Positions 1 to 55,934 of a DNA stretch of 64,000 nucleotides are shown one piece after another. Numbering within the stretch: the stretch's first letter is position 1; each line of letters begins with the position of its first letter. The DNA comes from Actinomycetota bacterium (lineage in GTDB: Bacteria > Actinomycetota > UBA4738 > HRBIN12), in NCBI GenBank assembly GCA_040004125.1, contig JBDUBL010000002.1:5338-69337 (forward strand), read 5' to 3'. Made by a program: the position numbers and the translations under genes. Under the pieces are notes generated by a model. That model was not told the origin of the DNA. It saw only the letters and a program-made list of their open reading frames with translations, and did no database searches.

Positions 1-110
1 CTTTGGTCTTCGTCCAGAACATCCAGCTCATCGGGCCTGTCTTCCGCTCGAACCGACGGTCATGATGCCGTATCGGTCGCTCCGACCGTGAACCGGAACC
101 GAACCCCCGG

Positions 111-1655
111 TCAAGCGTTCGAGTCGGGGAAGCTGGCTTTCTTCCGGTCGATCCACTCGCGGAGCTCTTCGTCCTTGGCATCGTCCAACGGCGGCGCCTC
201 GTACTCCGCGAGGGTCTTCTTCCAGATGGCGTTGGCACGCTGAGCGGCATCCAGCGAGCCGTCGATCTCCCACTGTTCGAACGAGTTGTTGTCCGCCGTG
301 CTGGACCGGTAGAAGGCTGTTTCGAAGTTGGCGAGCGTGTGCGCGGTACCGAGGAAATGCGTTCCGGGGTCGTTCGCGAGGATCGCGTCGAGCGCCTGCC
401 CGTTGGGCGACAGATCCATCCCCTTGGCGAGCTCGTGCATCTGGCCGCACTGATCGAGGTCCAGGACGAACTTCTCGTAGCCCATCGCGAGGCCGCCCTC
501 CAGCCAGCCCGCGGCGTGCAACACGAAGTTGACGCCGCCCAGGATCGTCGGCTGCAGCGTGTTGGCGCTCTCGTAGGCGGCTTGTGCGTCCGCGATCTTG
601 CTCGCCGTCAACGACCCACCGCTGCGGAACGGCACGCCGAGGCGGCGCGCGCAGGCGGCAAGCGCGTACAGCACGAGCGCGGGCTCGGGAGTCCCGAACG
701 TCGGCGCGCCCGACTGCATCGACATCGACGATGCGAAAGAGCCGAACACGACCGGCGCGCCCGGGCGCACGAGTTGGATGTAGGCCATGCCGGCAAGGGC
801 TTCGGCCAAGGTCTGGGTGGCCGCGCCCGCCGACGTCGCCGGGCTCATCGCGCCCGCCAGGATGAACGGCGTCATGATGACGGCCTGATTGGCCTCCGCG
901 TAGGCCTTTGCGGCGCCGAGCATGATCGAGTCCCAGACGAGCGGGCTGTTCGCGTTGATCAGGCTGAGGACGTAGGGATGTTCTTCCAGTGCGTCGGCGC
1001 CGAACAGGATCCGCGCCATGTCGACGGTGTCGCGCGCCCGGAGCGGATGCGTGACCGAGCCCATGAACGGCTTGTCCGAGTACCGCATGTGCGCGTAAAC
1101 CATGTCGTAGTGGCGCTTGTTCACCGGCAGGTCGACCGGCTCGCACACCGTGCCGCCCGAGTGGTGCAGGAACGGGGTCGAGTACGCGAGCCTCACGAAG
1201 TTGCGGAAGTCCTCGATCGTGCCGTAGCGCCTGCCCCCGTCGAGATCGCGCACGAACGGCGAGCCGTAGGCCGGCGCAAGCACGGTCGCCATGCCGCCGA
1301 GGTGCACGGTGTTGGCGGGGTTGCGTGCATGCTGATCGAACGCGCGCGGGGCCGTCGCCTGCACCAGCTGGCGCGCCAGCCCCCGCGGGAACCGCACCCG
1401 CTCGCCGTCGATGTCGCAGCCTGCTCCCTTGAGCAGCTCGAGCGCGTCGGACATGCCGCGGAACTCGATCCCGACGGTCTCCAGGATCGTGTCGGCGTTC
1501 TGCTCGATCGTGGCGAGGCCCTCTTCGGACAAGACCTCGACGGGCTGCAGCTGACGCGTGATGAACGGGACCTTCTCCGCGACCTCGGCCAGGCGGGCGG
1601 CGCGGCGCCCCTCCCGGCCGCCGGTGCGACGTCCACGGGCTTGGGTGTCGCTCAT
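111..1655 (-). CDS. MttB-superfamily methyltransferase without pyrrolysine codon (glycine betaine / quaternary amine:corrinoid methyltransferase-like)
   Basis: Uninterrupted 514-aa frame (C-terminal part of track ORF 111..2798) beginning MSDTQARG. Full-length resemblance to the trimethylamine methyltransferase (MttB) family. No in-frame TAG. ATG at 1655-1653 overlaps the TGA of the upstream gene (ATGA). Confidence 0.85.
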   Translation of the reverse strand: MSDTQARGRRTGGREGRRAARLAEVAEKVPFITRQLQPVEVLSEEGLATIEQNADTILETVGIEFRGMSDALELLKGAGCDIDGERVRFPRGLARQLVQATAPRAFDQHARNPANTVHLGGMATVLAPAYGSPFVRDLDGGRRYGTIEDFRNFVRLAYSTPFLHHSGGTVCEPVDLPVNKRHYDMVYAHMRYSDKPFMGSVTHPLRARDTVDMARILFGADALEEHPYVLSLINANSPLVWDSIMLGAAKAYAEANQAVIMTPFILAGAMSPATSAGAATQTLAEALAGMAYIQLVRPGAPVVFGSFASSMSMQSGAPTFGTPEPALVLYALAACARRLGVPFRSGGSLTASKIADAQAAYESANTLQPTILGGVNFVLHAAGWLEGGLAMGYEKFVLDLDQCGQMHELAKGMDLSPNGQALDAILANDPGTHFLGTAHTLANFETAFYRSSTADNNSFEQWEIDGSLDAAQRANAIWKKTLAEYEAPPLDDAKDEELREWIDRKKASFPDSNA

Positions 1656-3631
1656 GCGGTGCTCCTCTCTTGGGTGCTGCGGCGGCGTCGGCCGGTGGTG
1701 GCGGCGGAGCGCTCGGGTAGTTGGACGTGCTGGGCGAGCCGCGGATACGGGTCCGTCGCATGCGGGATGCCCATCGCCCCGACGAAGTGCTCTTGGAAGC
1801 GAGGCTCGGTGGCGGTCTCGATCTTCTCGACGCGGCGAACAACGGCCTCGATCTCGGCACGGGCCTCTCGGTTGAGCAGGGCGATGCGCGCGCCGGTGCC
1901 GGCCGCGTTCCCGGCGCTCGTCACATCGGCCGGCTCGCAATCGGGGACGAGCCCGAGCACCATCGCGTGCACGGGGTCGATATGTGCCCCGAAGGCGCCG
2001 GCAAGGCGGATCCGATCCACCTGCTCGATCCCGTAGTGGTCCATCAGCAGCCGGCAGCCCGCGTACAGCGCGCCCTTGGCCAGCTGGATCTGGCGCACGT
2101 CGTTCTGCGTGAGCACGAGGCGCGGCGCGTCTGCGTGCACGACATAGGCGCTGGTGCGACCGTCCGCGACGACGCGGTCGGTTCGCTCTGCGGCGGCTGA
2201 GTCGATGACGCCTTCCCCCGTCAGGATCCGCGCCAGATAGAGCTCGGCGACGAGCTCGATGATGCCGGAGCCGCAGACACCGGTCGGCGTCGGCGCGCCC
2301 GGTTCGTCGCTCCAAACCTCGCTGCCGATCGTGCGGTAGCGCAGCTCGAGCGTCTCGGCCTCGATCCGGACGCGCTCGATCGCCCCCGGCGCGGCCCGCT
2401 GGCCGCATGAGATCTGGGCGCCCTCGAAGGCCGGACCGGTCGGGCTGGACGCGGCAAGCAACCGATCCCGGTTCCCGAGCACGATCTCGGCGTTCGTGCC
2501 GACGTCGACGATCAGATTGACGACGTCCTGGTCGTGGGGTGCTTCCGACAAGATGACCCCCGCGGTGTCGGCCCCCACGTGGCCCGCGATCAGCGGCAGT
2601 GCGTAGACACGGGCGCCGGGGTTCACATCGATGAACAGATCCCGCGCCGGCACCGTGAGCGCATGATCGGTGACGAGCGCGAAGGGCGCGCCGCCCAGCT
2701 CGGTCGGATCGAAGCCGAACACGAGGTGGTGCATGATCGGGTTCCCCACCACGACCAGCTCCAGGATGTCCTCGCGCACGGCGTCGGCCGTCGCGCACAG
2801 CTCGCCCACCAGCTGGTCCAGGCAGGTCCGGACCGCGGCGGTGAGCTCAACCTCGCCGCCCGGATGCATCATCACGTAGCTCACCCGGCTCATCAGGTCC
2901 TCGCCGAAACGGATCTGCGGGTTCATCGCGCCGGCGCTGGCAAGCACCTCGCCGGTGTACAGGTCGCAGAGATGTCCCGCCACGGTGGTCGAACCGACGT
3001 CGAAGGCAACGCCGAGCGCGACGTCGTGGAACCCCGGGAAGACCGCGGTGATCAGTGATCCATCGCGCACCGCCACCGTCGCGGTCCAGTCGCCGGCGCG
3101 AAGCGTCTTCTGCAAACCGGGCAGGACGATCGGGTCGACCTGCAGATCGATCAGTGACCAGTCGCGCTCGAGCGCCGCCAACAGCCGTTGCAGATCGCCC
3201 GACGAACGCTCGAGCGAGGGTTGCACGATGTCGACGTAGTGCAGCCGCACGATCGGGTCGACGTCGATCGGATGGGCGTCGGCCTCCTTGCGCACGACCT
3301 GGCGGTGGATCTGCGATTCGGGCGGCACGTCGATCAGCAGATCGCCGCAGATCTTCGCGTGACACCCAAGGCGACGATCCTCGGCGAGGCCGTCGCGTTC
3401 GCGATACCGCTCCTCGGGCTCGGTGAACGCGATCATGTGATCGGCCGCGCTGGTGATGCCGTGCTTCGCAAACGACCCCGTCATCGGCACGATCTGGCAG
3501 CGTCCGCAGATCCCGCGGCCGCCGCAGACGGAGTCGAGATCGACGCCGAGCGTGCGCGCCGCATCGAGCACGCTCGCACCGTCGGGCACCTCGCCGCGGC
3601 GCCCCGAAGGGGTGAAGACGACGGTGTTCAC
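1652..3631 (-). CDS. Corrinoid reductive activase (RACo/RamA-like): N-terminal plant-type 2Fe-2S ferredoxin plus ASKHA-fold ATPase
   Basis: Sequence begins (V)NTVVFTPSGRRGEV. Ferredoxin Cys motif CGGRGICGRC...GCH. Long ASKHA-like body (DVGSTTV, VDVGTNAE, GICGSGII-like CGSGIIE). GTG at 3631-3629 sits in a GTGA overlap with the upstream stop. I rejected the longer track start at 3904. Confidence 0.8.
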   Translation of the reverse strand: MNTVVFTPSGRRGEVPDGASVLDAARTLGVDLDSVCGGRGICGRCQIVPMTGSFAKHGITSAADHMIAFTEPEERYRERDGLAEDRRLGCHAKICGDLLIDVPPESQIHRQVVRKEADAHPIDVDPIVRLHYVDIVQPSLERSSGDLQRLLAALERDWSLIDLQVDPIVLPGLQKTLRAGDWTATVAVRDGSLITAVFPGFHDVALGVAFDVGSTTVAGHLCDLYTGEVLASAGAMNPQIRFGEDLMSRVSYVMMHPGGEVELTAAVRTCLDQLVGELCATADAVREDILELVVVGNPIMHHLVFGFDPTELGGAPFALVTDHALTVPARDLFIDVNPGARVYALPLIAGHVGADTAGVILSEAPHDQDVVNLIVDVGTNAEIVLGNRDRLLAASSPTGPAFEGAQISCGQRAAPGAIERVRIEAETLELRYRTIGSEVWSDEPGAPTPTGVCGSGIIELVAELYLARILTGEGVIDSAAAERTDRVVADGRTSAYVVHADAPRLVLTQNDVRQIQLAKGALYAGCRLLMDHYGIEQVDRIRLAGAFGAHIDPVHAMVLGLVPDCEPADVTSAGNAAGTGARIALLNREARAEIEAVVRRVEKIETATEPRFQEHFVGAMGIPHATDPYPRLAQHVQLPERSAATTGRRRRSTQERSTA

Positions 3632-4542
3632 GACTCGGCCTGTGTGCCCAGACGGGCCGAGCGACCGCCTCGACGACGGCCCGTCGCCTCGGTGCCTGCC
3701 CGATCCGAGTAGGCCTTGATCCAGGCCTCCGAGTGCTTGTCGGTGCCCATCAGCACGTCGGCGGCCATCGTGGCTTGCCGAACCTCCTCGTGCAGCGGGG
3801 ACGTGATCGCGCTGGTCAGGCCGTTGGCGATCGCCATCGCCAGGAACGCGCCGTTGATCCCGTTGCGGTTCGGCAGCCCGAACGACACGTTCGAAGCGCC
3901 GCACGTCGAGTTCACGCCGAGTTCGTCGTGCAGCCGCCGCACCAGCGAGAACACCTGCCGCCCTGCGGTGCCCATCGCGCCGATCGGCATCACCAGCGGG
4001 TCGACGACGACGTCGTGCGCCGGGATCCCGTGGTCGGCGGCTGCGTGCACGATCTTCTCGGCGATGCCGAATCGCACGTCGGGGTCCTCGCTGATCCCGG
4101 TCTCATCGTTCGTGATCGCCACCACCGCGGCGCCGTGCTTGGCCACGAGCGGCAACACCGACTCGATCCGGTCGTCCTCGCCGGTCACGGAGTTCACGAG
4201 CGCCTTGCCCTCGTACACGGCCAGCCCGGCCTCCAGCGCCGCCACGATCGAGGAGTCGATGGACAGCGGCAGGTCGGTCAGCGACTGCACGAGCTTGATC
4301 GTCGCGGCCAGGATCCCGGGCTCGTCGGCGAGCGGGATGCCGGCGTTCACGTCGAGCATGTCGGCGCCGGCGCGCACCTGCGCATCGACGTCGGCGATCA
4401 CCGTCGAGAAGTCACCGGCGGCCATCTCGGCGGCGAGTCGCTTGCGCCCGGTCGGATTGATCCGCTCGCCGATGATCGTGAACGGCCGGCCCGTGCCGAT
4501 CACGTGCTCGCGAGTGGCTGAGGAGACGACCGTATCGGCCAT
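3628..4542 (-). CDS. Pterin-binding methyltransferase (methyl-corrinoid:tetrahydrofolate methyltransferase, AcsE/MtrH/MetH-pterin-domain-like)
   Basis: MADTVVSS...IIGERINPTGRK...DMLDVNAG...ALVNSVTGE...CGASNVSFGLPNR is typical of the pterin-binding TIM barrel. ATG at 4542-4540 overlaps the upstream TGA by 1 nt (TGATG). Confidence 0.8.
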   Translation of the reverse strand: MADTVVSSATREHVIGTGRPFTIIGERINPTGRKRLAAEMAAGDFSTVIADVDAQVRAGADMLDVNAGIPLADEPGILAATIKLVQSLTDLPLSIDSSIVAALEAGLAVYEGKALVNSVTGEDDRIESVLPLVAKHGAAVVAITNDETGISEDPDVRFGIAEKIVHAAADHGIPAHDVVVDPLVMPIGAMGTAGRQVFSLVRRLHDELGVNSTCGASNVSFGLPNRNGINGAFLAMAIANGLTSAITSPLHEEVRQATMAADVLMGTDKHSEAWIKAYSDRAGTEATGRRRGGRSARLGTQAES

Positions 4543-4892
4543 CAGTCCTCGCTCGAGGGCCGCACGGCCTCGCCCTGCGCGGCGACGTCGGCGCCGCCGC
4601 GGTACCCACCGGCCCGTATCGCGACCTTCAACGCCTCGTCGGTCCACTCCGCGAGCACGGCGTCTTCGGCGGTCTGCGCCTCGACCTCGAGATCCTCACC
4701 CACCCCGCTGCGGTTCGTCGCCATCTGCCCGGTGTAGTCGTCGGAGCCGATCAACCCGGCCACCATCGCCGCGGCGTCGACCGCCTCTTGGAACTTCTCG
4801 GGCAGTAAGCGTCGGGCCGACGCACCGGCGTCGTCGCGCACGACGATCTGCATCGGGATATCGCGCCACGCGATAACGGTGAGCTCTGCCAC
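4542..4892 (-). CDS. Small conserved protein of unknown function embedded in the corrinoid operon
   Basis: 116-aa frame (MAELTVIAWRDIPMQIVVRDD...) with a GTG start preceded by AAGGGGGA. G/C-rich third codon positions. From unverified recollection it resembles small proteins annotated 'virulence factor' next to corrinoid methyltransferase genes. Confidence 0.6.
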   Translation of the reverse strand: MAELTVIAWRDIPMQIVVRDDAGASARRLLPEKFQEAVDAAAMVAGLIGSDDYTGQMATNRSGVGEDLEVEAQTAEDAVLAEWTDEALKVAIRAGGYRGGADVAAQGEAVRPSSED

Positions 4893-4901
4893 GGATCCCC
4901 C

Positions 4902-5597
4902 TTACGTTGCGGCCATGGCCCGCTTCGCGAGCACCAAGGCCTGGGCGGTTTCCGCCGCCACCGCTGCGTCACGGCAGTATGCATCGGCGCCGACGGCTTT
5001 CCCGAACTCCTCGTTCAGCGGAGCGCCACCGACCATGACGATGTACTTGTCGCGAAGTCCCTTCGCCTGGAGCTCGTCGATCACGACCTTCATGTAGGGC
5101 ATCGTCGTGGTGAGCAACGCGCTCATGCCGAGGATGTCGGGCTGGTGTTCCTCGAGGGCGGCGAGGTAGTCCTCGACCGGGTTGTTGATGCCGAGGTCGA
5201 CGACCTCGAAACCAGCGCCCTCGAGCATCATCGCGACCAGGTTCTTGCCGATGTCGTGGATGTCGCCCTTGACGGTGCCGATCACGACCGTGCCCATGCG
5301 CTCGGCGCCGGTCTCGGCCAGCAACGGGCGCAGCAGCACCATGCCGGCCTTCATCGCGTTGGCCGCCAGCAGCACTTCCGGTACGAACAAGATGCCGTCG
5401 CGGAAGTCGATGCCAACGATCCGCATGCCTTCGACCAGGGCTTGGTTCAGCACCTTGTCGGGCGCCCAGTCGCGCTCGAGCAGGATCTGCGTCCCCTCCG
5501 CGATCTCGTCGGCCAGCCCGTCGTACAGGTCGTCGTGCATCTGTTTCACGAGCTCGTCGTCCGGCAAGGCCGACAGCACGATCTCTTCGTCGCTCAT
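4902..5597 (-). CDS. Corrinoid (cobalamin-binding) protein
   Basis: B12-binding signature GDIHDIGKN (DxHxxG), MSALLTTT and VMVGGAP, with an N-terminal helical cap domain. GAGAGGAA Shine-Dalgarno sequence upstream of the ATG. Confidence 0.9.
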   Translation of the reverse strand: MSDEEIVLSALPDDELVKQMHDDLYDGLADEIAEGTQILLERDWAPDKVLNQALVEGMRIVGIDFRDGILFVPEVLLAANAMKAGMVLLRPLLAETGAERMGTVVIGTVKGDIHDIGKNLVAMMLEGAGFEVVDLGINNPVEDYLAALEEHQPDILGMSALLTTTMPYMKVVIDELQAKGLRDKYIVMVGGAPLNEEFGKAVGADAYCRDAAVAAETAQALVLAKRAMAAT

Positions 5598-5607
5598 CTC
5601 GTTCCTC

Positions 5608-8079
5608 TCATGCTTTGAGTCGTTCGCCCTTTGGGTCGAACAGCGGCTCCGCCGCGACCGTGGCCGGGTACCGCTCGCCGAAGTACTGCACCTCGACCGA
5701 CGTGCCTTCGACGGCCAGCTGCGCCGGCAGGTACCCGTAGACGATGCCCCGGCCGATCGAATAGCCGTAGTTCGCGCTGGTCACGTAGCTCACCACCCGG
5801 CCCTCGTGGCGGATCGGCTCCTTGCCGAGGACGACGTGTCGCGGATCGTCGAACGTCATCGGGACCAACCGCTTGGCCGGTCCGCGGTCCCGGATCGCCT
5901 CCAGCGCTTCCTTGCCATGGAAGTCCTTGTCCCATCGCACCGCGAACCCGAGACCGGCCGACAGCGGGTCGTACTCGGTGTGGATGTCCTGACCCCAGAG
6001 GCGATAGCCCTTCTCCAGGCGCATCGCATCGAAGGCCCCGAGCCCGGCGGCGATCAGCCCGTGGGACCGGCCCGCACCCCAGAGTGCGTCCCATACGCGC
6101 TGACCCATCTCGGTGGGGCCGTACAGCTCCCAGCCGAGCTCGCCCACGTAGCTGATCCGCTGCGCGAACACCGGCGCCTCCGCGACCTCGATCTCGGCGC
6201 CGGTCATATACGGGATCGCGGCGCTCGACACGTCATCGTCGGTGACCGCCGCAAGGATGTCGCGGGCGCGTGGCCCCCACAACCCTAGGCAGAACGACCT
6301 GCTCGAGCTGTCGAAGATGCGGACCTGGTCGCCGTCATGCACCTGGGTGCGGAGCCACGCGAGGTCGTGCATACCCGAGCCGCCGCCCGTCACGACCATG
6401 AAGACGTCTTCGTCGTGCCGCGTCACCGTGAGGTCGCAGCGGATGCCCCCGCGCGCCGTGAGCATCGCGGTGTAGACGACCGTCCCGACCGGCCGGTCGA
6501 TGCGGTTGGCGCAGACGCGCTCGAGGAAGGCCAGCGCATCGGGCCCCTGGACACGGATCTTCACGTACGGCGTGATGTCGAACAGACCCGCCGCCTCGCG
6601 CACGGCGAGGTGCTCGCCCCCTTCGATCGGCGACCACTCCTGCGCGGCCCAGCCGCCGCGTCGCGCCCACTCGTGCATCACGCCACCGACGAGGTCGCGA
6701 TTGTCCTCGAACCACTGCGGACGCTCCCAACCGGCGCCGGTGATGCATCGCGCGCCCTGTTCCCGGTGGCGGGCGAAGAACGGTGTCAGCCGCAGGCCGC
6801 GAGGTTTCGCCGGCTGCTGGCGCGGGTGCAGGATGTCGTAGACCTCCCGGTACTGCTGCTTCCCGCGTTCGATGACGTATGGCGCGGCGGTCTGGAACGG
6901 GTAGAAGCGGTTCGCGTCAGCCTCGGCCAAGTCGTAGCTCGGCTCGCCCGCCTCCATCCACTCGACGACCTGGCGCGCCATGCCGCCGGCGTGCGTCACC
7001 CAGACGGCCTCACAGACCCACACGCCGCGCACGGTCGCGCTCTCTCCGACGATCGATCCCGCGTCGGGTGTGAACGAGAACATCCCGTTCAGCGAGCGGT
7101 CGGGGTCGCTCGGGCGCATGCGGCCCGCAAGCGCCGGGAACAGACGCGCCGCCTCCGCCTCGCACAGATCGAAGTCCTCGGGGGTGAACGCCATGAGCGA
7201 CGGTTGCATCGGGCCGCCGGGCGCACGGATGCCGGCTTGCGGCGTCACGATCGGTTCGTGCCGGTAGTTGCCGACGCCGAAGTGATCGTCGCGCTGGCGG
7301 AAGTACAGCGACAGGTCCTGGTGGCGAACGACCGGCTGCTCGAGCCAGCCCATCCCCTCGAGACCGGGGATCGGTTCGGTCCACACGAGCTGATGCTGCA
7401 CGGCGACGAGCGGGATCGGCACGCCCGCCATCGCGCCGATCGTCGGGCCCCAGATGCCGGCGCACAGCAGGACACGTTCGCATTCGATGCGGCCCTGCGC
7501 GGTCTCGACCGCGTGGATCCGGCCGCCAGACGTGTCGAACCCGGTGACGGTGACGCCGCCGGCGAAGCGGACGCCCGCGTCCTGCGCGCGTCTCGCAAGC
7601 GCCTCGACGATCTCCACGCCTTTGCCGGCGCCGTCGCTCGGGGTCCAGTAGCCGCCGAGGACCGTCGAAGGGGCCAGCAACGGCGAGCGCTCGGCACACT
7701 CGTCGGGCGACAGCAATTCCGTCCCCTCCAGGCCATAGGCCTGTGCGAACCCCTGGCGGCGCTTCAGCTCCTGCATGCGCTCGACGGTGGTCGCCACCTC
7801 GAGACCGCCGACCCCGAACCAGACCTTCTCGCCGTCGACCCTCAGCGCGTCGTAGAGGGCGACGGAGTCCTGCGCGATGCGACACATCGTGCGGGAGCCG
7901 TTGGTCTGGAAGATGATCCCGGGTGCGTGCGAGGTGGAGCCGCCGGTGGCGAACAACTGACCTTGGTCGAGCACCAGCACATCGGTTACACCAAGCTCTG
8001 CCAAGTGGCATGCCGCCGAGGCGCCGACGATACCGGCGCCGACGATCACGGTCTGGGCACGGGTGGGCAGTTCAGCCAC
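5608..8079 (-). CDS. Dimethylglycine oxidase-like flavoprotein (FAD DAO domain fused to GcvT-type folate-binding aminomethyltransferase domain)
   Basis: VIVGAGIVGASAA dinucleotide fold and GGSTSHAPGIIFQ (covalent-FAD His motif as in Arthrobacter DMGO). C-terminal RISYVGELGWELY...EKGYRLWG GcvT motifs. The start is taken as GTG 8079. The track ORF extends to 8367, but that N-terminus is Arg/Pro-rich junk. Confidence 0.85.
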   Translation of the reverse strand: MAELPTRAQTVIVGAGIVGASAACHLAELGVTDVLVLDQGQLFATGGSTSHAPGIIFQTNGSRTMCRIAQDSVALYDALRVDGEKVWFGVGGLEVATTVERMQELKRRQGFAQAYGLEGTELLSPDECAERSPLLAPSTVLGGYWTPSDGAGKGVEIVEALARRAQDAGVRFAGGVTVTGFDTSGGRIHAVETAQGRIECERVLLCAGIWGPTIGAMAGVPIPLVAVQHQLVWTEPIPGLEGMGWLEQPVVRHQDLSLYFRQRDDHFGVGNYRHEPIVTPQAGIRAPGGPMQPSLMAFTPEDFDLCEAEAARLFPALAGRMRPSDPDRSLNGMFSFTPDAGSIVGESATVRGVWVCEAVWVTHAGGMARQVVEWMEAGEPSYDLAEADANRFYPFQTAAPYVIERGKQQYREVYDILHPRQQPAKPRGLRLTPFFARHREQGARCITGAGWERPQWFEDNRDLVGGVMHEWARRGGWAAQEWSPIEGGEHLAVREAAGLFDITPYVKIRVQGPDALAFLERVCANRIDRPVGTVVYTAMLTARGGIRCDLTVTRHDEDVFMVVTGGGSGMHDLAWLRTQVHDGDQVRIFDSSSRSFCLGLWGPRARDILAAVTDDDVSSAAIPYMTGAEIEVAEAPVFAQRISYVGELGWELYGPTEMGQRVWDALWGAGRSHGLIAAGLGAFDAMRLEKGYRLWGQDIHTEYDPLSAGLGFAVRWDKDFHGKEALEAIRDRGPAKRLVPMTFDDPRHVVLGKEPIRHEGRVVSYVTSANYGYSIGRGIVYGYLPAQLAVEGTSVEVQYFGERYPATVAAEPLFDPKGERLKA

Positions 8080-8151
8080 GGACAGATGATGCCCTACCGA
8101 GTTGCCGACGCAACGTCGGCGTTGCGGGAACCGCAACGACGGGCGACGCGG

Positions 8152-8178
8152 ACGGGGCGGACCAGAGGCCCGCCCCGT
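8152..8178 (-). terminator. GC-rich hairpin downstream of proX (possible terminator or processing site), followed by two short hairpins at 8104-8137
   Basis: ACGGGGCGG (8152-8160) pairs with CCGCCCCGT (8170-8178). No clear U-tract. It lies 33 nt after the proX stop. Confidence 0.35.
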
Positions 8179-8210
8179 TCGTAAGCACTCGCCTTCGCCG
8201 AGCCGATCAG

Positions 8211-9230
8211 TTACGCAGCAGGCGATGCCGACTGCGCTGCCAGGCCGGCGTCGACCCAACTCTGCCACGTGTCGGGGTTCGCGTCGATCCATTTCTGTGC
8301 CGCGTCCGCCGGGTCCATCTCGCTGTACAGGTCGTGAGAGACGGCATTCTGGTCGGCTTCGGTCCACTGCATCGCCGACAGGAATGCGAACGCCGCCGGG
8401 GCATTCGTCTGCAGGTCAGCGTTGAAGGCCTTGTAGAGGGGATCGGTCGGGTAGTCGCAGTTGTACGCATCGGCGTTCTCGCCGGTCGCGTAGATCTGCG
8501 TGCAGGCGTCGGTCACCTTTGGCAGCTTGATCTGGGTCAGGTCGTAGTTCTCATGAGCCCAATGGGGAGTCCAGAAGTACATCAAGATCGGCTTCTGAGC
8601 CTGATAGGCGGTATCCAGCTCCGTGAGTTCCGCCTCCTCTGACCCGGCGTACTTCGCCTTCAGGTTCAAGCCCAGGTTCTTGGCGATCGTGTCGTCGAAC
8701 GTCACGTAGCTGGGGTCCCCGTCGAGGATCTGCCCCATGTCGCCGGAATCCGACGTCTGGAACAACTGCCAGTCTGTCTTGAGCCCTTCCCAGGTGGCAA
8801 GCTCAGGATGCTGCTCCACGAGGTATGTGGGCACGTACCATCCGATCTGACCCGTGATGCCGAGCTCCCCACCGTCGACCACACCGTTTCCACTCGCGAT
8901 GTAGTTCTGATAGTCGGCTCCGTGCCCCGAGGGCCAGATCTCCAGGGTCGCGTCGATGTCGCCGTTCGAAAGCGACTTGAACTGCGCGTACTCGTTGGCG
9001 TTCTTGGTGTCGACCGTGTATCCGAGCTTATCCTGCAGCAGCTTCTGCGCGACTGCGACGTTCGACGCCGACCCCAGCCACGGGCTGATCGCCAGCGTGA
9101 GGGTGGTATCGCTGTTGTCAGGTACCCCCGCCGCCGCTGTGGACGAGCTCGACACATCGCTGCATGCCGTCCCGACCAGCGCCAGGACGGTTACGGTCAC
9201 CCCCAAGAGAACCCTCTTGCGTGATCTCAT
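8211..9230 (-). CDS. proX: Glycine betaine/proline betaine ABC transporter substrate-binding lipoprotein
   Basis: Signal peptide with lipobox LVGTAC. ProX/OpuAC-like body (LEIWPSGH, GWYVPTY, FWTPHW aromatic-box-type motifs). ATGA overlap with the permease stop. Confidence 0.85.
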   Translation of the reverse strand: MRSRKRVLLGVTVTVLALVGTACSDVSSSSTAAAGVPDNSDTTLTLAISPWLGSASNVAVAQKLLQDKLGYTVDTKNANEYAQFKSLSNGDIDATLEIWPSGHGADYQNYIASGNGVVDGGELGITGQIGWYVPTYLVEQHPELATWEGLKTDWQLFQTSDSGDMGQILDGDPSYVTFDDTIAKNLGLNLKAKYAGSEEAELTELDTAYQAQKPILMYFWTPHWAHENYDLTQIKLPKVTDACTQIYATGENADAYNCDYPTDPLYKAFNADLQTNAPAAFAFLSAMQWTEADQNAVSHDLYSEMDPADAAQKWIDANPDTWQSWVDAGLAAQSASPAA

Positions 9231-11317
9231 CCCTCCTCCTTCCCATCCGGAATCTCTCCCGGGATCTCTGCTTCACTCACCTGTACGACCGTACGGCGCA
9301 TCTGAGACGTACCGAAGAACCAACCAACCGGATGGGGCCCGGTCGCGGGCCTGCCGGCCGGCGTCCCCATCGCCTGCGTGATCCGGTCGATCACGACAGC
9401 GAGCAACAGGATGCAGAGACCGGCGACCAGCCCCCGACCGAAATCGTGCGAGAGCCCGTAGATCACCTGGTAGCCGAGCCCCTCGCCACCGACCAGGCCG
9501 GCGATGATCACGACGGAGAGCACCATCATGATCGTCTGGTTGACCCCGAGCATGATCGACGGTTTCGCGAGCGGGAGTTGCACCTTGCGCAAGAGCTGCC
9601 GGTCGGTGGCCCCGAAGGCAACGGCCGCCTCGACGCGATCCGACGGCACCTGACGGATACCGAGGTCGGTCATGCGGATACAGGGCGGCAGCGCATAGAC
9701 GAGGGCGGCGATCACGCCCGGCACACGGCCCACATGGAAGAGTGCGATCACCGGGACCAGATAGACGAACTGTGGAAGCGTTTGCATGGCGTCGAGGACC
9801 GGTTTGAAGGCGCGCTGCACGCGATCACTTCGCGCAGACCAGATCCCCAGCGGGATCGCGATCGCCACGCTCACGGAAACGCCGACGATTACTTGGCTGA
9901 GCGTATCCATCGCGTTGTCCCACTGACCGACCGCGCCGATCGCCGCGATGAGAAGAAAGGAGGCGACCGCCAAACTGATCCTGCGCGCGGCTGCCCAGGC
10001 GGCGATCGCGGCGCCGAGGCAGACCATCCACCAGGGCAGTCCCTGGAGGAGCTCCCGCAACGGGTTGAGCGCGTACGTGTCCGCATATGTGGTGACATGC
10101 GAGGTGATCGGCCGAATGGCGTTCACGACGGACCGATCCACCCGGTCGATCGTCGGCGCGATCTTGATCACCAGTGCGTCCGGGAACTCCTGCTGGCGAA
10201 GCACCTGTCGGCCAACGACGATCGCGCCGATCGAGATCACCACCAGAAGAAGCAGCGCCACGCGCCGGGAGATGCTCCAGCCGAAGAGGTGGATCTTGGT
10301 CTCACCCCTCGACGTTCGGCTGCGATCGCTCCATCCCAGGGTGACCCGGTCGAGCACGATCGCCAACGCAACGATGGCGAGGCCGGCGACGAGTGCGGAC
10401 CCGACGTGGAGTCCCTGCAGCGCCTCGTACACGCGAAGGCCAAGTCCTGGATAGCCCACCGTGGCGGCGATCACGATGATGCCGAGCGCCATCATGATCG
10501 TCTGGTTGACGCCGACCATGATCGTCGGCCGAGCGATCGGCAACTGCACCTTGCGAAGCAACTGCTGCTTGGTCACGCCGAAGGCGAGACCGGCTTCAAG
10601 CGCGTCCGACGGCACTTGCCGTATCCCGAGACTCGTCAGCCGGATCGCCGGCGGCAACGCGAAGATGACGGTGGCGATCATGGCCGAGGTTGCCCCGATC
10701 GAGAACAACAGCACCACGGCGACGAGATACGAGAACGCCGGAACGGTCTGCATGGCGTCGAGTACCGGGCGAAGGAGCTTCTCCACCGTCGGATGCCGTG
10801 CGGAGTAGATCCCCATCGGGATCCCGATCGCCAGCGCGACGATCACGGACAGGGCGACCAGGGCGAGGGTCTCCAGGCTGTCGGTCCACAACCCGAGGAC
10901 ACCGACCGCGAGAAACCCGACCACGGCGAGGATCCCCTTGCGCCACCCGGCGACATACGCCGAGGTGGCCCAGACGATCGCCAGAAAGCCGAGCCAGGTC
11001 AGTCGCGAGAGCGTCGCCACCAGTTGATCGACAGCCTTGTTCACCCCGTTCTTGAGCGGCACGAGCACGTGCACGAACAAAGGGTGGGTGCGTTGGTGGG
11101 CGATGACCCAGTCGCTCGCCGCGTTGAACGGCTTCGTCGCGTCCAGCGTCAGTCGCTCGGGAAACCCTCCGGGGAACACCACGAGCCCCACCACGATCGC
11201 CGCGACGATGGCTCCGATCCAGATCAGGCGACGACGCCACGGGTGCTCGGCCTGGCGGATCGTTCCTGACGTCGCGCTGAGCTCGAGGAGCGACTGGTCG
11301 TCGCGAACGACCGCCAC
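9227..11317 (-). CDS. proW: Betaine ABC transporter permease, tandem fusion of two ProW-like domains
   Basis: Two homologous halves, each with an EAA loop (EAGLAFGVTKQQLLRKVQLP and EAAVAFGATDRQLLRKVQLP) and a VLDAMQT(V/L)P motif. The GTG start directly abuts the proV TAG. Confidence 0.85.
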   Translation of the reverse strand: MAVVRDDQSLLELSATSGTIRQAEHPWRRRLIWIGAIVAAIVVGLVVFPGGFPERLTLDATKPFNAASDWVIAHQRTHPLFVHVLVPLKNGVNKAVDQLVATLSRLTWLGFLAIVWATSAYVAGWRKGILAVVGFLAVGVLGLWTDSLETLALVALSVIVALAIGIPMGIYSARHPTVEKLLRPVLDAMQTVPAFSYLVAVVLLFSIGATSAMIATVIFALPPAIRLTSLGIRQVPSDALEAGLAFGVTKQQLLRKVQLPIARPTIMVGVNQTIMMALGIIVIAATVGYPGLGLRVYEALQGLHVGSALVAGLAIVALAIVLDRVTLGWSDRSRTSRGETKIHLFGWSISRRVALLLLVVISIGAIVVGRQVLRQQEFPDALVIKIAPTIDRVDRSVVNAIRPITSHVTTYADTYALNPLRELLQGLPWWMVCLGAAIAAWAAARRISLAVASFLLIAAIGAVGQWDNAMDTLSQVIVGVSVSVAIAIPLGIWSARSDRVQRAFKPVLDAMQTLPQFVYLVPVIALFHVGRVPGVIAALVYALPPCIRMTDLGIRQVPSDRVEAAVAFGATDRQLLRKVQLPLAKPSIMLGVNQTIMMVLSVVIIAGLVGGEGLGYQVIYGLSHDFGRGLVAGLCILLLAVVIDRITQAMGTPAGRPATGPHPVGWFFGTSQMRRTVVQVSEAEIPGEIPDGKEEG

Positions 11318-12361
11318 CTACCGCACCTCGATCATGGCGGCAAGCACCGCCGTGCGATCGACGACGCCGATCTGCGCTCCCCCGTCCACCACCCGGAACG
11401 GACGATGCTCCTCGGCGACCTTCGGTAGCAACGTCTGCACGATCTCGCCGGCGTCGACATCGCCCGCGTACTCTGCATCGCCGTTCGCAGCGCGCATGAT
11501 CGTACGGACCGTCAATACATGCGCGCGCGGCACGTCGCGCGTGAAGTCCGCCACGTAGTCGTCCGCCGGATGTGCGACGACGTCCTCCGGCGTCCCCACC
11601 TGCACGAACTTGCCGTCCTTCATGATCGCGATCCGGTCGCCTAGCTTCAGCGCCTCGGCCAGATCATGGGTGATGAAGATCATGGTCTTCTGCACGTCGC
11701 GCTGCAGTCGGATCACCTCGTCCTGCATGTCGCGGCGGATCAGCGGATCCAACGCGGAGAACGGCTCGTCGAACAGCATGATCTCCGGGTCGGTCGCCAA
11801 CGCGCGTGCCAACCCCACGCGTTGTTGCATGCCTCCCGAGAGCTCATCAGGGTAAGAGTTCCCCCACCCATCAAGGCCGACCGTTTCGAGCACTTCGTTG
11901 GCCTTGGCTTCACGGGGCTCTTTCTCGACACCTCGGATCTCCAAACCGAAGGCCACGTTTTCCACGATGCGACGATGCGGCAACAAGCCGAAGTGTTGGA
12001 AGACCATCGAGATCTTCGTACGTCGCACCTCGCGCAGGCGCTCGTCGTCGAGGTGCATGATGTCCTCACCGTCCAGCAGCACCTGGCCTGCCGTCGGATC
12101 GTGGATGCGGTTCAACATCCGCACGAGGGTGGACTTGCCGGAGCCCGACAGCCCCATCACCACGAACACCTCGCCGGGCGCCACATCGAACGAGACGTCG
12201 CGCACGGCCGCGACGCAGCCGGTCTTCTCCTGGAGTTCCGCGCGCGGCAGATCGGCGTCCGGCGTGCCTACGATCTTGTTCGCGTTCGCGCCGTAGATCT
12301 TCCATACGTTGCGACACGACACCGTCGCTTGCGCTGCGTCTGCCTGCGTCACGTCGCTCAA
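11318..12361 (-). CDS. proV: Betaine ABC transporter ATP-binding protein with C-terminal CBS-like region
   Basis: Walker [10 protein letters not shown], signature LSGGMQQR, Walker B MLFDEP. The start is proposed at TTG 12361, 7 nt after GAGGGGG. GTG 12352 is an alternative. Confidence 0.85.
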
Positions 12362-12508
12362 CTCTGAGCCCCCTCGCGTTCGAGCCGACCGCCGGATGGT
12401 GGGCCACCGGCGCGAAGAGCGCAACACGGCGGTTGCCGCCTCGACAACACGAGGCGCGCAGGGCGCGCCCGCGCCGTGTCAGACTCCCGCCGAGCGACGG
12501 GAGGGCAG

Positions 12509-14173
12509 ATGACCGAAACGTATGACTTCGTGATCATCGGCGGCGGCTCCGCGGGCAGCGCGATGGGCAATCGCCTGTCCGCCGACCGCGGCAACCGCGT
12601 CCTCGTCTTGGAGGCCGGCCGTTCCGACTACCCGTGGGACGTGTTCATCCACATGCCTGCGGCGCTTGCCTTCCCGATCGGCAGCCGGTTCTATGACTGG
12701 AAGTACGAATCCGAGCCCGAGGCCCATATGAACGGGCGCAGGGTTTACCACGCGCGCGGCAAGGTGCTCGGCGGTTCCAGTTCGATCAACGGCATGATCT
12801 TCCAGCGCGGCAACCCTTTGGACTACGAACGCTGGGCCGCCGACCCCGGCATGGAAACGTGGGACTACGCGCACTGCCTCCCCTATTTCAAGCGGATGGA
12901 GACGTGTCTGGCCGCCGAGCCCGACGACCCGTTCCGCGGGCACTCGGGGCCACTCGTTCTCGAACGGGGCCCGGCGACCAACCCGTTGTTCGGCGCGTTC
13001 TTCAAGGCGGTCCAGGAGGCCGGTTATCCCCTCACCGACGATGTGAACGGCTACCGCCAGGAGGGGTTCGCGCCGTTCGATCGCAACGTGCATGACGGCA
13101 AACGCTTGTCGGCGGCGCGCGCCTACCTGCACCCCGTGATGCACCGCCAGAACCTCGAGGTGCACACGCGCGCGTTCGTCACGAGGATCCTGTTCGAAGG
13201 CACCCGCGCGGTGGCGGTCGAATACACGCGTGGGCGCTCGACACATCGCGTGCGCGCCGGCGAGGTCGTGCTGTGCGGTGGCGCGATCAACTCGCCCCAG
13301 ACCTTGATGCTCTCGGGCGTCGGGCCGGCCGAGCATCTGCAGGAGCACGGCATCGCGCCCGTCGCCGACGTGCCCGGCGTGGGGGAGAACCTCCAGGACC
13401 ACCTGGAGGTCTATATCCAATACAAGAGTCTGCAGCCGGTCTCGGTCGCGCCCTACATGAAGATGTGGCGCCGCCCGTTCGTCGGCGCCCAGTGGCTGTT
13501 CTTCAAGAAAGGCCCCGGCGCGACCAACCACTTCGAAGCAGGCGGGTTCGCTCGCAGCAACGGCGACGTCGCCTACCCAAACCTGATGTTCCATTTCCTG
13601 CCGATCGCGATCCGCTACGACGGTTCGGCACCGGAAGGCGGCCACGGGTACCAGGTCCACATCGGGCCGATGTACTCCGATGCGCGAGGCACGATCCGCC
13701 TCACGAGCGCCGACCCGGCGGTGCACCCGGCGCTGCGGTTCAACTACGTGTCGACCGACCAGGACCGCCGCGAGTGGGTCGAGGCGATCCGCGTCGCGCG
13801 CGACATCTTGGGCCAGCCTGCGATGGGACCGTTCAACGGCGGCGAGATCTCACCGGGGCCGGGCGTCGCAACCGACGAGCAGATCCTCGACTGGGTCGCG
13901 CGCGACGGCGAGACCGCCCTGCACCCGTCGTGCACGACCAAGATGGGCGACGCCACCGACCCGCTGTCGGTGATCGATCCGCTCACGATGCAGGTGCACG
14001 GCACCGAGGGTCTGCGGGTGGTCGACGCCGGCGTCTTTCCCTACGTCACGAACGGCAACATCTACGCGCCGGTGATGATGGTCGCCGAGAAGGCCGCCGA
14101 CCTGATCCTCGGCAACACGCCGTTGGAGCCCGAGAAGGTCGAGTTCTACCGCCACGGCGTGAGCGAGCGTTAA
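12509..14173 (+). CDS. betA: Choline dehydrogenase (GMC oxidoreductase)
   Basis: [16 protein letters not shown] fold, [13 protein letters not shown], and C-terminal [12 protein letters not shown] signature. ATG 12509 is preceded by GGGAGGG. Confidence 0.85.
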
Positions 14174-15030
14174 GAACCGAGACCGAGCATGAGCAGACCC
14201 AGGACGACGAAGCCGATCCCGACGTACTGGTTGGTCGCGAGCCGTTCGTGCAACGTGACGTGCGACAGCAACACCGCGATCAGCGGGAACACCGCGCTCG
14301 CCGCCAGGACGATCGACAGCGAGCCGGCCTCCGCACCGGCGGAGTAGCTCGCGACCCCGAGTACGTCGGTCGCCCCGGCGACCAACGCGAAGGAGACGCC
14401 GAGCAGGGTCGCCGTGCGCAGCCGTGAGAACTCGCCTCGGCGCGCGACGGCCAGCGGCACGAACGCCAACACCATCGCCCACCGGGACGCGAACGTGGCG
14501 ACCTGCCAGAGGCCCGTCTTCTGCGAAACGACACCGAGGGTGAACCCGGCAACGCCGAACCCGACTGCCGAAGCGACGGCCCACCAGAGGCCGGGCGGAT
14601 GCCGCCGCAGGCCTGCGCGCATGGCCGTGAGATCCGTCGACACGAGCACGGCGCCGACGATCGAACAGCCGATGCCGACGAACGCCAACGGGCTCGGGCG
14701 CTCGCCGAGCACGGCGATCGCCAGCAACACGCCCACGACCGCATAGCCCGCGCCGATCGGTGAGACCACCGACACCGGCCCCAGCTCCAACGCGTGGTAG
14801 TGCAGCGCGTACGCCGACATCGCGACGATCCCGTTGATCGCCACCAGCCACCACCACCCGCCGAGCGACGAGAGGCCGTAGCCCGACACGAGGAAGATGA
14901 CCGTGATCGCGACGATCGCCAGCATCTGCCCGATGAGCACCGCCATGAGCGACCCGAGCCGCCTGCTCGCCAGGTGGGCGAAGAAGTCCGCGAGGCCCCA
15001 GCCGAGCGCCGCGAACAGCCCGTAGATCAC
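14170..15030 (-). CDS. EamA/DMT-family transporter
   Basis: A 286-aa polytopic membrane protein with two EamA-like halves. GTG 15030 sits in a GTGA overlap with the upstream stop. The track ORF extension to 15936 is non-coding-like. Confidence 0.75.
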
Positions 15031-18234: not shown

Positions 18235-19482
18235 ATGCGTCACCCGAAGGACTTGTCCCGCCGGCAGTTCCTGACCCGGGCGGGGGGCGCCGCGATCGCG
18301 ATGCCCAGCCTCGCTGCCATCCTGGCCGCCTGCTCCAAGCCCGGCAGCACGGGCCCCAGCGGCGGCGCCTCCGAGATCCCGATCGCCACACTCGAGAACC
18401 CGGTCGAGCTTCCGATGACCAGAGACCCGATCGCGGCCAATACGCCGCTCGAGTCGGGACCGCTCGTGCTCTACAACTGGGCGGACTACATCTGGAAGCC
18501 CGTCGTGCACCAGTTCGAGGATCAATTCGGCGTGAGCGTCGAGATCACGGAGTTCAACAACCTGGAAGAGGGCATCCAGAAGGTCGCCAACGGTCAGGTG
18601 TTGGCCGACGTGTTCGTGCCGACGCCCGGCTACCTCCGACGGCTCGTGGGGAAGGATCTCCTCCAGCCTCTCCAGCAAGAGCTCGTCCCCAACATGCAAG
18701 CGAACGTCTGGCCGAGCTACTACAACCCGGGGCCTTACTACGACCTCAGTTGGAACTATTCGGTGCCCTACACGATCTACACATGGGGCGTGGCGTATCG
18801 GCGCGACCGGCTGAGCGATGAGGAAGCGGCGAGCCAGGGCTGGGATGCGTTGTGGAACAGCGACTACAACGGCGAGATCAGCCTGTATAACTCCTACGGC
18901 GACACGATCGCCGTCACGGTTTTGCGCAACGGAAGCCTCGACGTGAACACCGGTGACCCCGCGCTCATCGAGGCCGCGAAACAATCGATCCTGCAGACGA
19001 TCAACGACAACAAGGCGCGGCTCACGATCAACGGCGTGTATGCCAAGTTGCCGGCGGGCGACATCACCGTCGCCGAGGCGTGGTCCGGCGACATCGTCGG
19101 TGGCCAGTGGTACCTGCCAAAGGACGTCGGCACAGACGTCTTGGGCTTCTGGCGCCCGCCGACGGGGCAGACGATGATCGGCAACGACCTCCTCACCATC
19201 CCCTCCGCCGCCAAGAGCCCGCGTCTTGCACATGAGTTCATCAACTTCATGCTCGACAAGAAGCACGGGACCGACAACTTCGTGAACTGGAACGGTTATC
19301 AGCCACCGTTCACCTCGATCGATCCGAGCACGTTGATCGCCGACGGAGTCGTGCCTGAGAACCTCGCCGCCGCGGTCGTGACCGAGGACATGTTCAAGAA
19401 GGACCTGACGCCCTACGAACTGACGCCCACGGTCGACCAGATGTGGCTCGACGCGTGGACCGAGATCACCGCAGGAGCTTGA
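18235..19482 (+). CDS. PotD/PotF-family (polyamine-type) ABC substrate-binding lipoprotein with Tat signal
   Basis: Tat motif SRRQFL plus lipobox LAAC. The body resembles spermidine/putrescine-binding proteins. AGGAGGGG precedes the ATG. Confidence 0.8.
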   Translation: MRHPKDLSRRQFLTRAGGAAIAMPSLAAILAACSKPGSTGPSGGASEIPIATLENPVELPMTRDPIAANTPLESGPLVLYNWADYIWKPVVHQFEDQFGVSVEITEFNNLEEGIQKVANGQVLADVFVPTPGYLRRLVGKDLLQPLQQELVPNMQANVWPSYYNPGPYYDLSWNYSVPYTIYTWGVAYRRDRLSDEEAASQGWDALWNSDYNGEISLYNSYGDTIAVTVLRNGSLDVNTGDPALIEAAKQSILQTINDNKARLTINGVYAKLPAGDITVAEAWSGDIVGGQWYLPKDVGTDVLGFWRPPTGQTMIGNDLLTIPSAAKSPRLAHEFINFMLDKKHGTDNFVNWNGYQPPFTSIDPSTLIADGVVPENLAAAVVTEDMFKKDLTPYELTPTVDQMWLDAWTEITAGA

Positions 19483-19504
19483 GATAACCTCCCCGGAAAC
19501 AGCT

Positions 19505-21348: not shown

Positions 21349-21363
21349 GACGGGAGGAAGGAC

Positions 21364-22491: not shown

Positions 22492-22572
22492 CGCGCGCGG
22501 AGCATACCGCGGGCCAACCCCTGCAGGTCAACCGGTACCGGCGGAGGGCTGAACCTGGCATCATGTCGCTTC

Positions 22573-23339: not shown

Positions 23340-23343
23340 GGTC

Positions 23344-25112: not shown

Positions 25113-25113
25113 G

Positions 25114-25398
25114 TCAGCCTTCTTCGATGACCCCGTCATGCCACTCGGGGTCCTCCTCCAACAGCGCTCGGATCTCCATATAGCGCTCGTTCTGCGCGGG
25201 GTCATCGGCGTTGGCGTCGTAGCTCGCCCGATCCTTGAAGATCACGAACAGCCACTGCGCGTCGCTGTCGTTCTCGGACAGGACGAACGAGCGAACGTAG
25301 CCGGGGATCGTCGAGCCTTCCATCTGTGCCGACGTCACCTTGCGCAAGGTGTCGACGTTGTCCGGCTTGACGCGCATCTTCGCGACGGTGCCGTACAT
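25114..25398 (-). CDS. Small ABM/Dabb-like (antibiotic-biosynthesis-monooxygenase fold) protein
   Basis: 94-aa frame MYGTVAKMRVKPDNV... preceded by a strong AAGGGAGG Shine-Dalgarno sequence. The fold assignment is by resemblance only. Confidence 0.55.
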   Translation of the reverse strand: MYGTVAKMRVKPDNVDTLRKVTSAQMEGSTIPGYVRSFVLSENDSDAQWLFVIFKDRASYDANADDPAQNERYMEIRALLEEDPEWHDGVIEEG

Positions 25399-25477
25399 GG
25401 TGCCTCCCTTCGAGCCGGAACCGCTCCGGCCGATGCCGACCAGCCTAGAGCGGGTCGTGCGATGGCGGAACCCCCGT

Positions 25478-27149: not shown

Positions 27150-27153
27150 AGCC

Positions 27154-55892: not shown

Positions 55893-55934
55893 GGACCGCA
55901 CATGCTAGCGGGTCGCGCTCGGTACACTCGGCCC

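Follow-up and report, generated by a model that had tools for sequence, protein, structure and literature searches.

Gene content and organisation of the string from 12361 to 111

In the 64-kb stretch of DNA from an Actinomycetota bacterium analysed here (contig JBDUBL010000002.1; hereafter the window, in whose coordinates nucleotide positions and strands are given) we found nine co-directional open reading frames (ORFs) on the minus strand, running from 12361 down to 111, with the choline dehydrogenase gene betA oriented divergently from them. The string encodes an importer of the betaine/choline family, a homologue of dimethylglycine oxidase (DMGO) and a corrinoid methyl-transfer module, and we consider it likely that it is an operon for aerobic glycine betaine catabolism via the cobalamin-dependent MtgBCD route. 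The G+C content of the window is 64–71%, and coding frames are marked by a G+C content at third codon positions (GC3) of 0.84–0.92. Domains were called by Pfam and NCBIfam profile searches of the window ORFs, whereby NCBIfam matches were judged by their curated cut-offs. The following features were identified:

12476–14173, plus strand: choline dehydrogenase gene betA, GMC oxidoreductase (TIGR01810, 826.8 bits, cut-off 732.1; GMC_oxred_N and GMC_oxred_C)
11318–12361, minus strand: ProV-type ABC ATPase of a betaine/choline-family importer (TIGR01186, 377 bits, cut-off 326.6; ABC_tran)
9227–11317, minus strand: fused double ProW-type permease, 696 aa (two BPD_transp_1 domains; NF008196 ProW, 476 bits, in two stretches)
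8211–9230, minus strand: ProX/OpuAC-type binding protein (PF04069 OpuAC, 5.5e-43)
8080–8210, minus strand: spacer of 131 nt between the ProX and DMGO genes, with three GC-rich hairpins (RNA fold)
5608–8079, minus strand: DMGO homologue, 823 aa (DAO, FAO_M, GCV_T and GCV_T_C; PDB 1PJ5, 6e-222)
4902–5597, minus strand: MtgC-like corrinoid (B12-binding) protein (B12-binding_2 and B12-binding; DIHDIG at residue 112)
4542–4892, minus strand: small protein of family PF13769 'Virulence_fact', 116 aa (4.3e-12)
3628–4542, minus strand: MtgD-like pterin-binding methylcorrinoid:tetrahydrofolate methyltransferase (Pterin_bind, 2.2e-26; NF005719, 339 bits, cut-off 259)
1652–3631, minus strand: RACo/RamA-like reductive activase with 2Fe-2S part and ASKHA ATPase (RACo_linker, Raco_middle and RACo_C_ter)
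111–1655, minus strand: non-pyrrolysine, MtgB-like methyltransferase of the MttB superfamily, 514 aa (PF06253, 9.4e-220)
1–31, minus strand: first 10 codons (MSWMFWTKTK) of a gene resembling methylenetetrahydrofolate reductase (MTHFR; MetF2 analogue), cut by the window edge

Pfam and NCBIfam agree with the initial annotation of this DNA on the nine minus-strand genes and their positions, and all families named there were recovered. This holds for the DxHxxG motif of the corrinoid protein (DIHDIG), for the 2Fe-2S/ASKHA protein of RACo type, which has three RACo domains and Cys36, Cys42, Cys45 and Cys90 in its N-terminal ferredoxin-like part (C-x5-C-x2-C...C), and for choline dehydrogenase, as betA scores above the TIGR01810 equivalog cut-off. 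The oxidase had been described as a look-alike of the Arthrobacter enzyme encoded 10 nt from the corrinoid gene; we measured the same 10 nt and found an end-to-end match to N,N-dimethylglycine oxidase 1PJ5 (residues 9–822 aligned to 6–829, E 6e-222) with the same four-domain architecture. The motif STSHAPG is identical in both proteins, and we take its His to be the covalent FAD carrier. Three statements had to be amended. The 116-aa protein, listed as unknown, is indeed encoded in the string and belongs to family PF13769; the module, thought to be complete within 111–14173, continues with the MTHFR-like gene beyond the window edge; and the reported lack of a regulator gene is correct for the window, whereas in relatives an IclR-type gene is found next to the module or some kb downstream of it.

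Regarding the junctions, the ProV and ProW genes are separated by 0 nt, the ProW and ProX genes overlap by 4 nt, and the gap of 131 nt follows between ProX and DMGO. From DMGO through MttB the string shows tight spacing and stop/start overlaps, with gaps of 10 nt (DMGO/corrinoid protein) and 9 nt (corrinoid protein/PF13769) and overlaps of 1 nt (PF13769/pterin methyltransferase), 4 nt (pterin methyltransferase/RACo) and 4 nt (RACo/MttB). The spacer at 8080–8210 folds with -71 kcal/mol compared to -58.7 +/- 4.1 kcal/mol for shuffled sequences (z = -3.0), and it has no T-tract. It could represent an attenuator, an element of mRNA processing or stability, an internal promoter region or the boundary of a transcription unit. 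Because this spacer folds into hairpins, the importer genes and the catabolic genes may be separate or attenuated transcription units. A scan of positions 1–14500 for promoter and terminator consensus sequences gave nothing exceeding shuffled sequences, and Rfam, searched over the whole window, returned no cobalamin, tetrahydrofolate (THF) or glycine riboswitch and no other RNA family.

The best PDB match of ProX is 4XZ6 (1.8e-34), the trimethylamine N-oxide (TMAO) binding protein TmoX. ProX keeps the aromatic box of TmoX (W51, W99, Y175, Y218 and W220), while Glu131 of TmoX corresponds to Ile129 and F106 to His103. TMAO import, as by TmoXWV, was considered on account of the TmoX match and was ruled out, since the N-oxide-binding Glu is missing. 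The residues of ProX fit a trimethylammonium compound other than TMAO. ProW-type permeases of similar length are also found at three of the related loci described below (L043, L052 and L066).

Recurrence of the module in other genomes

A protein search of annotated records identified an orthologue of the window MttB in Sinorhizobium meliloti (64% identity), on a record of 3.7 Mb labelled pSymB. Its neighbourhood comprises an ASKHA protein, a 'methyltetrahydrofolate cobalamin methyltransferase', an MTHFR with an MTHFR C-terminal-domain protein, a 'virulence factor', DUF1638, a cobalamin-binding protein, an MttB-family protein and a betaine ABC ATPase, and bmt (SMc04325-type) is located a few genes from MttB. 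By sequence comparison all five proteins of the corrinoid module are orthologous to members of this cluster, with identities from 35 to 79%: 35% for the PF13769 protein, 55% for RACo, 60% for the pterin methyltransferase and 79% for the corrinoid protein (window 4902–5597 against 12662–13360 of the S. meliloti locus, L081). The last value is far above that of the other module proteins (35–64%) and suggests either very strong constraint or lateral transfer.

In S. meliloti, Mausz et al. (PNAS 2025, PMC12478193) described MtgBCDE ORFs, two genes for reductive reactivation and a cobalamin synthesis operon, all co-located. They showed that mtgC and mtgD mutants of Ruegeria pomeroyi, under aerobic conditions, neither grow on nor consume glycine betaine, and that the proteins induced on betaine, choline and carnitine include two PF06253 MtgB paralogues, RamA, DUF1638 and MetF2 (PMC12478193). 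We link the window to these experiments through the S. meliloti cluster and not through the SPO2108/SPO2134 sequences. The kind of system is therefore already known, including in aerobes, and the premise of the initial annotation that such methyltransferases come from strict anaerobes only is outdated, as aerobic R. pomeroyi MtgBCD has been established by genetics and proteomics (PMC12478193).

A scan of species-representative genomes with the window MttB yielded 80 loci with proteins 68–96% identical to it; loci carrying MttB-like relatives are labelled L001, L002 and so on up to L083. The 80 loci belong to Actinomycetota (metagenome-assembled genomes (MAGs) of Actinomycetes, Gaiellales/Thermoleophilia and Acidimicrobiia), Chloroflexota and Alpha-, Beta- and Gammaproteobacteria. 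The closest relatives are environmental metagenome assemblies; isolate genomes among the carriers include those of Labrys and Virgifigura, which are both aerobes. The conserved order of genes is (IclR)–corrinoid protein–DUF1638–PF13769–pterin methyltransferase–RACo–MttB–MTHFR. Genes for the corrinoid protein, pterin methyltransferase and RACo are co-oriented upstream of MttB in 18 of 21 evaluable actinobacterial and all 9 evaluable Chloroflexota loci, and MTHFR is found directly downstream of MttB in 18 of 28 and 11 of 12 loci, respectively. In 17 of 21 actinobacterial modules and in 8 of 9 from Chloroflexota, the gene separating the corrinoid protein from PF13769 encodes DUF1638 (Pfam 3e-28). 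In Proteobacteria the module is usually dispersed. Neighbours of the module in many genomes are betA, betB, choline/betaine transporters, DMGO-like enzymes, sarcosine oxidase and MTHFR; the orthologue of Azoarcus KH32C (70% identity), for example, adjoins folD, a gene for a choline-binding protein, betA and betB.

The window forms a sub-type together with L001, L002, L003, L005 and L083 (MttB 84–96% identical), in which DUF1638 and IclR are missing from their usual place in the module and a DMGO at least 75% identical is encoded directly upstream of the corrinoid gene. At L083, on a contig of 1.14 Mb (MttB 88% identical), the genes for DMGO, corrinoid protein, PF13769, pterin methyltransferase, RACo, MttB and MTHFR are followed by an acetyltransferase gene and, on the opposite strand, soxG/A/D/B; genes for an IclR regulator and an enzyme of the PALP family come after these. 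This locus holds the whole series from betaine to glycine in one place, and by analogy its gene order probably shows what lies beyond the edge of the window. A fusion of DUF1638 to another protein of the window module was ruled out by alignment to the S. meliloti counterparts and by domain search. The corrinoid protein aligns to its counterpart over the first 203 residues only, which therefore leaves no room for a DUF1638 domain of roughly 200 residues; RACo aligns nearly end to end, and Pfam identified no extra domain in either protein.

The 10 codons at the window edge, MSWMFWTKTK, align to MSWKFWKKTA, the start of the MTHFR-like ORF of L001. A Pfam MTHFR match directly follows MttB in L001, L002, L003, L010 and L083, and full genes are present after MttB in L001, L003, L005, L010 and L083. 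The actinobacterial and Chloroflexota proteins are short and divergent (for example L003 11495–12370 and L001 8117–8749) with Pfam MTHFR scores of only about 1e-9, in comparison to 3e-32 for the proteobacterial pair of MTHFR and DUF5981; the best PDB match of the short type is 7XG9, an MTHFR of 288 aa. Two interrupted genes were noted among the relatives: RACo of L083 was called as two ORFs at 8003–10004 (Fer2 and linker; middle and C-terminal domains), and the MTHFR-like gene of L002 is seemingly in two pieces (11560–12446). Both may be frameshifts or assembly errors.

PF13769 proteins were found in Actinomycetota, Chloroflexota, Gammaproteobacteria and S. meliloti (e.g. L010 6635–6964, L036 16957–17262 and L081 9111–9413), and within the module the place of the gene is the same across three phyla as well as in S. 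meliloti. The AlphaFold2 model of the window protein is confident (predicted local distance difference test, pLDDT, 88.9), and Foldseek of this model against PDB gave no match with E <= 0.001. A PDB sequence search returned chance-level matches only; it was solely at this level that we met 6SJ8 and its relatives ('Methylcorrinoid:tetrahydrofolate methyltransferase'), which we take to be MtgA of Desulfitobacterium hafniense, a member of the MtrH family. No mention of PF13769 was found in the literature, and its name in the databases, 'virulence factor', probably misleads.

Proposed pathway and substrate of the MttB homologue

In the proposed pathway glycine betaine would enter the cell via ProVWX or arise from choline by BetA. 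The MtgB-like MttB would move one N-methyl group to the Co(I) form of the MtgC-like corrinoid protein, leaving dimethylglycine, and the MtgD-like pterin-binding methyltransferase would hand the methyl group to THF. We infer that the MTHFR-like enzyme encoded beyond the window edge then works in the oxidative direction, from methyl-THF to methylene-THF, while the RACo/RamA-like protein would use ATP to re-reduce Co(II) that arises by adventitious oxidation. DMGO would turn dimethylglycine into sarcosine and methylene-THF, and sarcosine oxidase, in close relatives encoded by soxBDAG and off the window here, would yield glycine. The route from choline over betaine and dimethylglycine to sarcosine had been predicted in the initial annotation, and it is the best-supported reading in view of the S. 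meliloti orthology and the recurrent context of betaine genes. Glycine betaine is favoured as the substrate because of betA in the window, betA, betB, folD and the choline-binding protein gene in Azoarcus, and DMGO and sox genes in close relatives.

The central enzyme of this pathway covers positions 17–500 of the 500 positions of the PF06253 MTTB profile (730 bits). Its 514 codons contain no in-frame stop and therefore no pyrrolysine (Pyl) codon, in accordance with what had been reported before, and with 234.5 bits it stays below the cut-off of 525 for TIGR02369, the equivalog of Pyl-dependent MttB. For comparison we used the solved structures 4YYC, 2QNE/9YCE and 7XCL as well as paralogues in the loci. 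Pyl-MttB structures align only to the C-terminal half of the window protein (E about 1e-25; 7XCL, a partial and weak match, 3.9e-25), whereas identity is 64% to 4YYC and 43%, over nearly the full length, to D. hafniense MtgB 2QNE. Since 4YYC is 100% identical to the MttB of the S. meliloti cluster, the clade has a solved structure; close homologues of the window protein number in the thousands.

The glycine betaine site of D. hafniense MtgB consists of Y97, R312, H348 and F356 (Picking et al. 2026, PMC13080624), with R312 and H348 as carboxylate ligands and Y97 and F356 as cation-pi residues (PMC13080624). We aligned 88 sequences, of which 86 were MttB-like and came from the window and the loci, and 2QNE and 4YYC were rebuilt from printed alignments. 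Y97, R312 and H348 correspond to Y130, R344 and H380 of the window MttB and are kept in 83–86 of the 88 sequences. All 85 orthologues share the motif HxAGW(L/T)EGGL, with the window protein showing HAAGWLEGGL (residues 380–388, window 492–518, minus strand). The invariant W384 of this motif occupies the position of I352 in MtgB, four residues before G388, and it may substitute for F356 as a cation-pi residue. The initial annotation had named a lack of betaine-binding residues as an argument against its own reading; three of the four contacts are in fact kept and F356 is replaced by Gly. As one contact is not conserved, its caveat on the identity of the substrate stands.

A number of observations weigh against the proposed pathway. 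The residue at the position of F356, Gly388 in the window, is Gly in all 85 orthologues including 4YYC, and the exchange F356L in D. hafniense MtgB lifts the Km several hundred-fold (PMC13080624). In the literature we found no published measured substrate for any MttB of the 4YYC type, 4YYC itself included, and the mutants of R. pomeroyi did not comprise the mtgB genes themselves (PMC12478193). The corrinoid protein scores under the NCBIfam cut-offs for MtgC (NF047996, 211 vs 370 bits; NF047995, 173.5 vs 310 bits). DUF1638 is required along with a RamA-like protein in Phaeobacter inhibens (PMC5764234), and both are reported to co-occur almost perfectly in Alphaproteobacteria (PMC5764234). It was not found by tblastn in the 64-kb window, L001, L002, L003 and L005, nor within +/-10 kb of the module in L083, a search that covers the window and the surroundings of the loci, so that the gene could be encoded elsewhere in the genome. 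Furthermore the window contains no betB and no genes of cobalamin synthesis or uptake (Pfam), as well as no riboswitch (Rfam), and co-transcription, which we infer for the string, is uncertain across the hairpin-rich spacer of 131 nt.

The change at F356, which is not conserved in the clade of the window MttB, raises the question whether the same machinery acts on another quaternary amine (candidates would be proline betaine, carnitine, gamma-butyrobetaine, choline and phospho-/sulfo-choline), with the DMGO-like enzyme using the respective product or being only loosely linked. A precedent is given by MtcB and MtyB, two members of the MttB superfamily which are 53% identical and already differ in substrate, and ProX, with the TMAO binder TmoX as its best PDB match, is distant from characterised betaine-binding proteins. 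On the other hand both carboxylate ligands (R312, H348) are conserved, as is the aromatic Y97, and among solved structures of the MttB family with an assigned substrate only MtgB comes close (43%). The recurring neighbours are betA, betB, DMGO, soxBDAG and MTHFR and not carnitine or proline-betaine genes, and with 10 nt separating the DMGO gene from the corrinoid gene the two are translationally adjacent. We regard a different amine as unlikely.

The families of the corrinoid protein, pterin methyltransferase and activase also occur in methionine synthesis, and the three proteins could mainly or additionally work as a split methionine synthase, with a homocysteine-binding MtgE/Bmt-like subunit encoded elsewhere and methyl groups flowing from CH3-THF to homocysteine, as is the case in P. 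inhibens and R. pomeroyi. Their orthologues in P. inhibens and R. pomeroyi are indispensable both to making methionine and to betaine use (PMC5764234, PMC12478193), and bmt is part of the S. meliloti cluster. A homocysteine methyltransferase gene was, however, not found in the operon, among the Pfam-scanned window genes or in 21.5 kb of L083, and the operon is built around the uptake and further degradation of betaine. We judge this explanation to be quite unlikely, and a dual role would be compatible with demethylation of glycine betaine.

Considering the oxygen sensitivity of Co(I) chemistry, the module might be used only under oxygen limitation, or be a horizontally acquired, non-functional passenger, while betaine is used aerobically by another route. 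The missing DUF1638 and the identity of 55–79% to proteobacterial versions, which suggests lateral transfer, would agree with this. Yet all ORFs are intact with host-like codon usage (GC3 0.84–0.92), the module is tightly coupled to the gene of an O2-dependent oxidase, the arrangement is conserved over several related MAGs (MttB 84–96% identical), and the same system is functional in R. pomeroyi under aerobic growth (PMC12478193), which makes such a scenario highly improbable.

Rather doubtful, finally, is the proposal that the 4YYC-type clade, PF13769 and the loss of DUF1638 together constitute a distinct 'oxic' design of corrinoid demethylase, with a pocket rebuilt by Trp384 and PF13769 as a functional subunit. 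Under this proposal PF13769 might take the role of DUF1638 in the upkeep or return of Co(I), or couple the module to MTHFR. In its stronger form the true substrate of the clade might not be glycine betaine.

Other genes of the window and comparison with known systems

Besides the string the window encodes an EamA transporter, an ADP-forming acyl-CoA synthetase-like protein, an enoyl-CoA hydratase, a luciferase-like monooxygenase, MMPL and TetR proteins, molybdenum-cofactor genes and peptidases; no cobalamin, methionine-synthase or DUF1638 genes were identified in the Pfam-scanned rest of the window. A second ABC importer (binding proteins, two permeases and a TOBE-domain ATPase) is located near an SDR and a DAO-family FAD oxidoreductase of 485 aa at 18415–28874, and these genes may represent another catabolic set for an amine or osmolyte. 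Two PAS-GGDEF-EAL paralogues of about 765 aa are found at 34575–36884 (plus strand) and 41037–43334 (minus strand), with a DEAD-box helicase, a PRK/uridine-kinase-family protein and a transketolase-like protein encoded between them. The ORFs 44021–45277 (plus strand, 418 aa) and 57815–59437 (minus strand, 540 aa) show GC3 of the coding type and no Pfam match at E <= 1e-5. In the ORF 55413–56357 (plus strand, 314 aa) a Cpn10 (GroES) domain is present only at residues 212–296; the start was probably mis-called by the GC3 heuristic, or else the protein has an unusual N-terminal extension.

If the string works by the MtgBCD route as proposed, cobalamin-dependent aerobic betaine demethylation, so far described for marine Proteobacteria, would extend to uncultured high-GC Actinomycetota, and with the comparative data also to Thermoleophilia, Acidimicrobiia and Chloroflexota. 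A further implication would be that these bacteria need B12 for the turnover of osmolytes. No new kind of biology is opened by this, but the window holds the most compact arrangement in our survey, with importer, first and second demethylation and methyl-THF oxidation in one string, which makes it a convenient target for heterologous reconstitution. It can also serve as a template for annotation, as the names 'trimethylamine methyltransferase' and 'virulence factor' mislead.

Regarding known systems, Pyl-containing MttB of Methanosarcina (7XCL) shares family PF06253 with the window MttB, whose gene has no UAG. The three-part split methionine synthase of P. inhibens (Price et al. 2018, PMC5764234) uses the same corrinoid, pterin-binding and RamA-like families; in contrast to it the window has an MttB partner and betaine genes and lacks the homocysteine-binding subunit and DUF1638. 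Dimethylglycine oxidase of Arthrobacter globiformis (1PJ5) has the same four domains and STSHAPG motif as the window homologue, which, unlike the A. globiformis enzyme, is encoded inside a corrinoid methyltransferase operon and whose activity is predicted from sequence.

MtgABC of D. hafniense, a strict anaerobe (MtgB 2QNE, 9YCE), shares with the window the MtgB-type TIM barrel (43%), the equivalents of Y97, R312 and H348, and the logic of a corrinoid protein with an ATP-dependent activase. The second methyltransferase differs, being a Pterin_bind protein (MetH/AcsE-like) in the window with a marginal match to the NCBIfam MtrH-family model (E 1.7e-4). The window MttB has Gly in place of F356 and Trp at position 352, and its context is aerobic catabolism instead of anaerobic respiration or acetogenesis.

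The aerobic MtgBCD system of R. pomeroyi DSS-3 and S. meliloti consists of the same families as the window module (PF06253, the DxHxxG corrinoid protein, Pterin_bind, RamA/RACo and an MTHFR paralogue), and both are associated with genes for choline, betaine, dimethylglycine and sarcosine. This aerobic system is reported to be widespread, later demethylation genes lie beside mtgBCD in many marine bacteria, and about 5% of oceanic mtgC reads were classed as Actinomycetota (PMC12478193). DUF1638, IclR and MtgE/bmt are not found in the window, and instead of the proteobacterial pair of MTHFR and DUF5981 the actinobacterial and Chloroflexota modules carry a short MTHFR. In contrast to the aerobic proteobacterial system, the genes in the window form one co-oriented, translationally coupled string in an actinobacterium, with an Arthrobacter-type DMGO and an importer immediately upstream of the corrinoid module.

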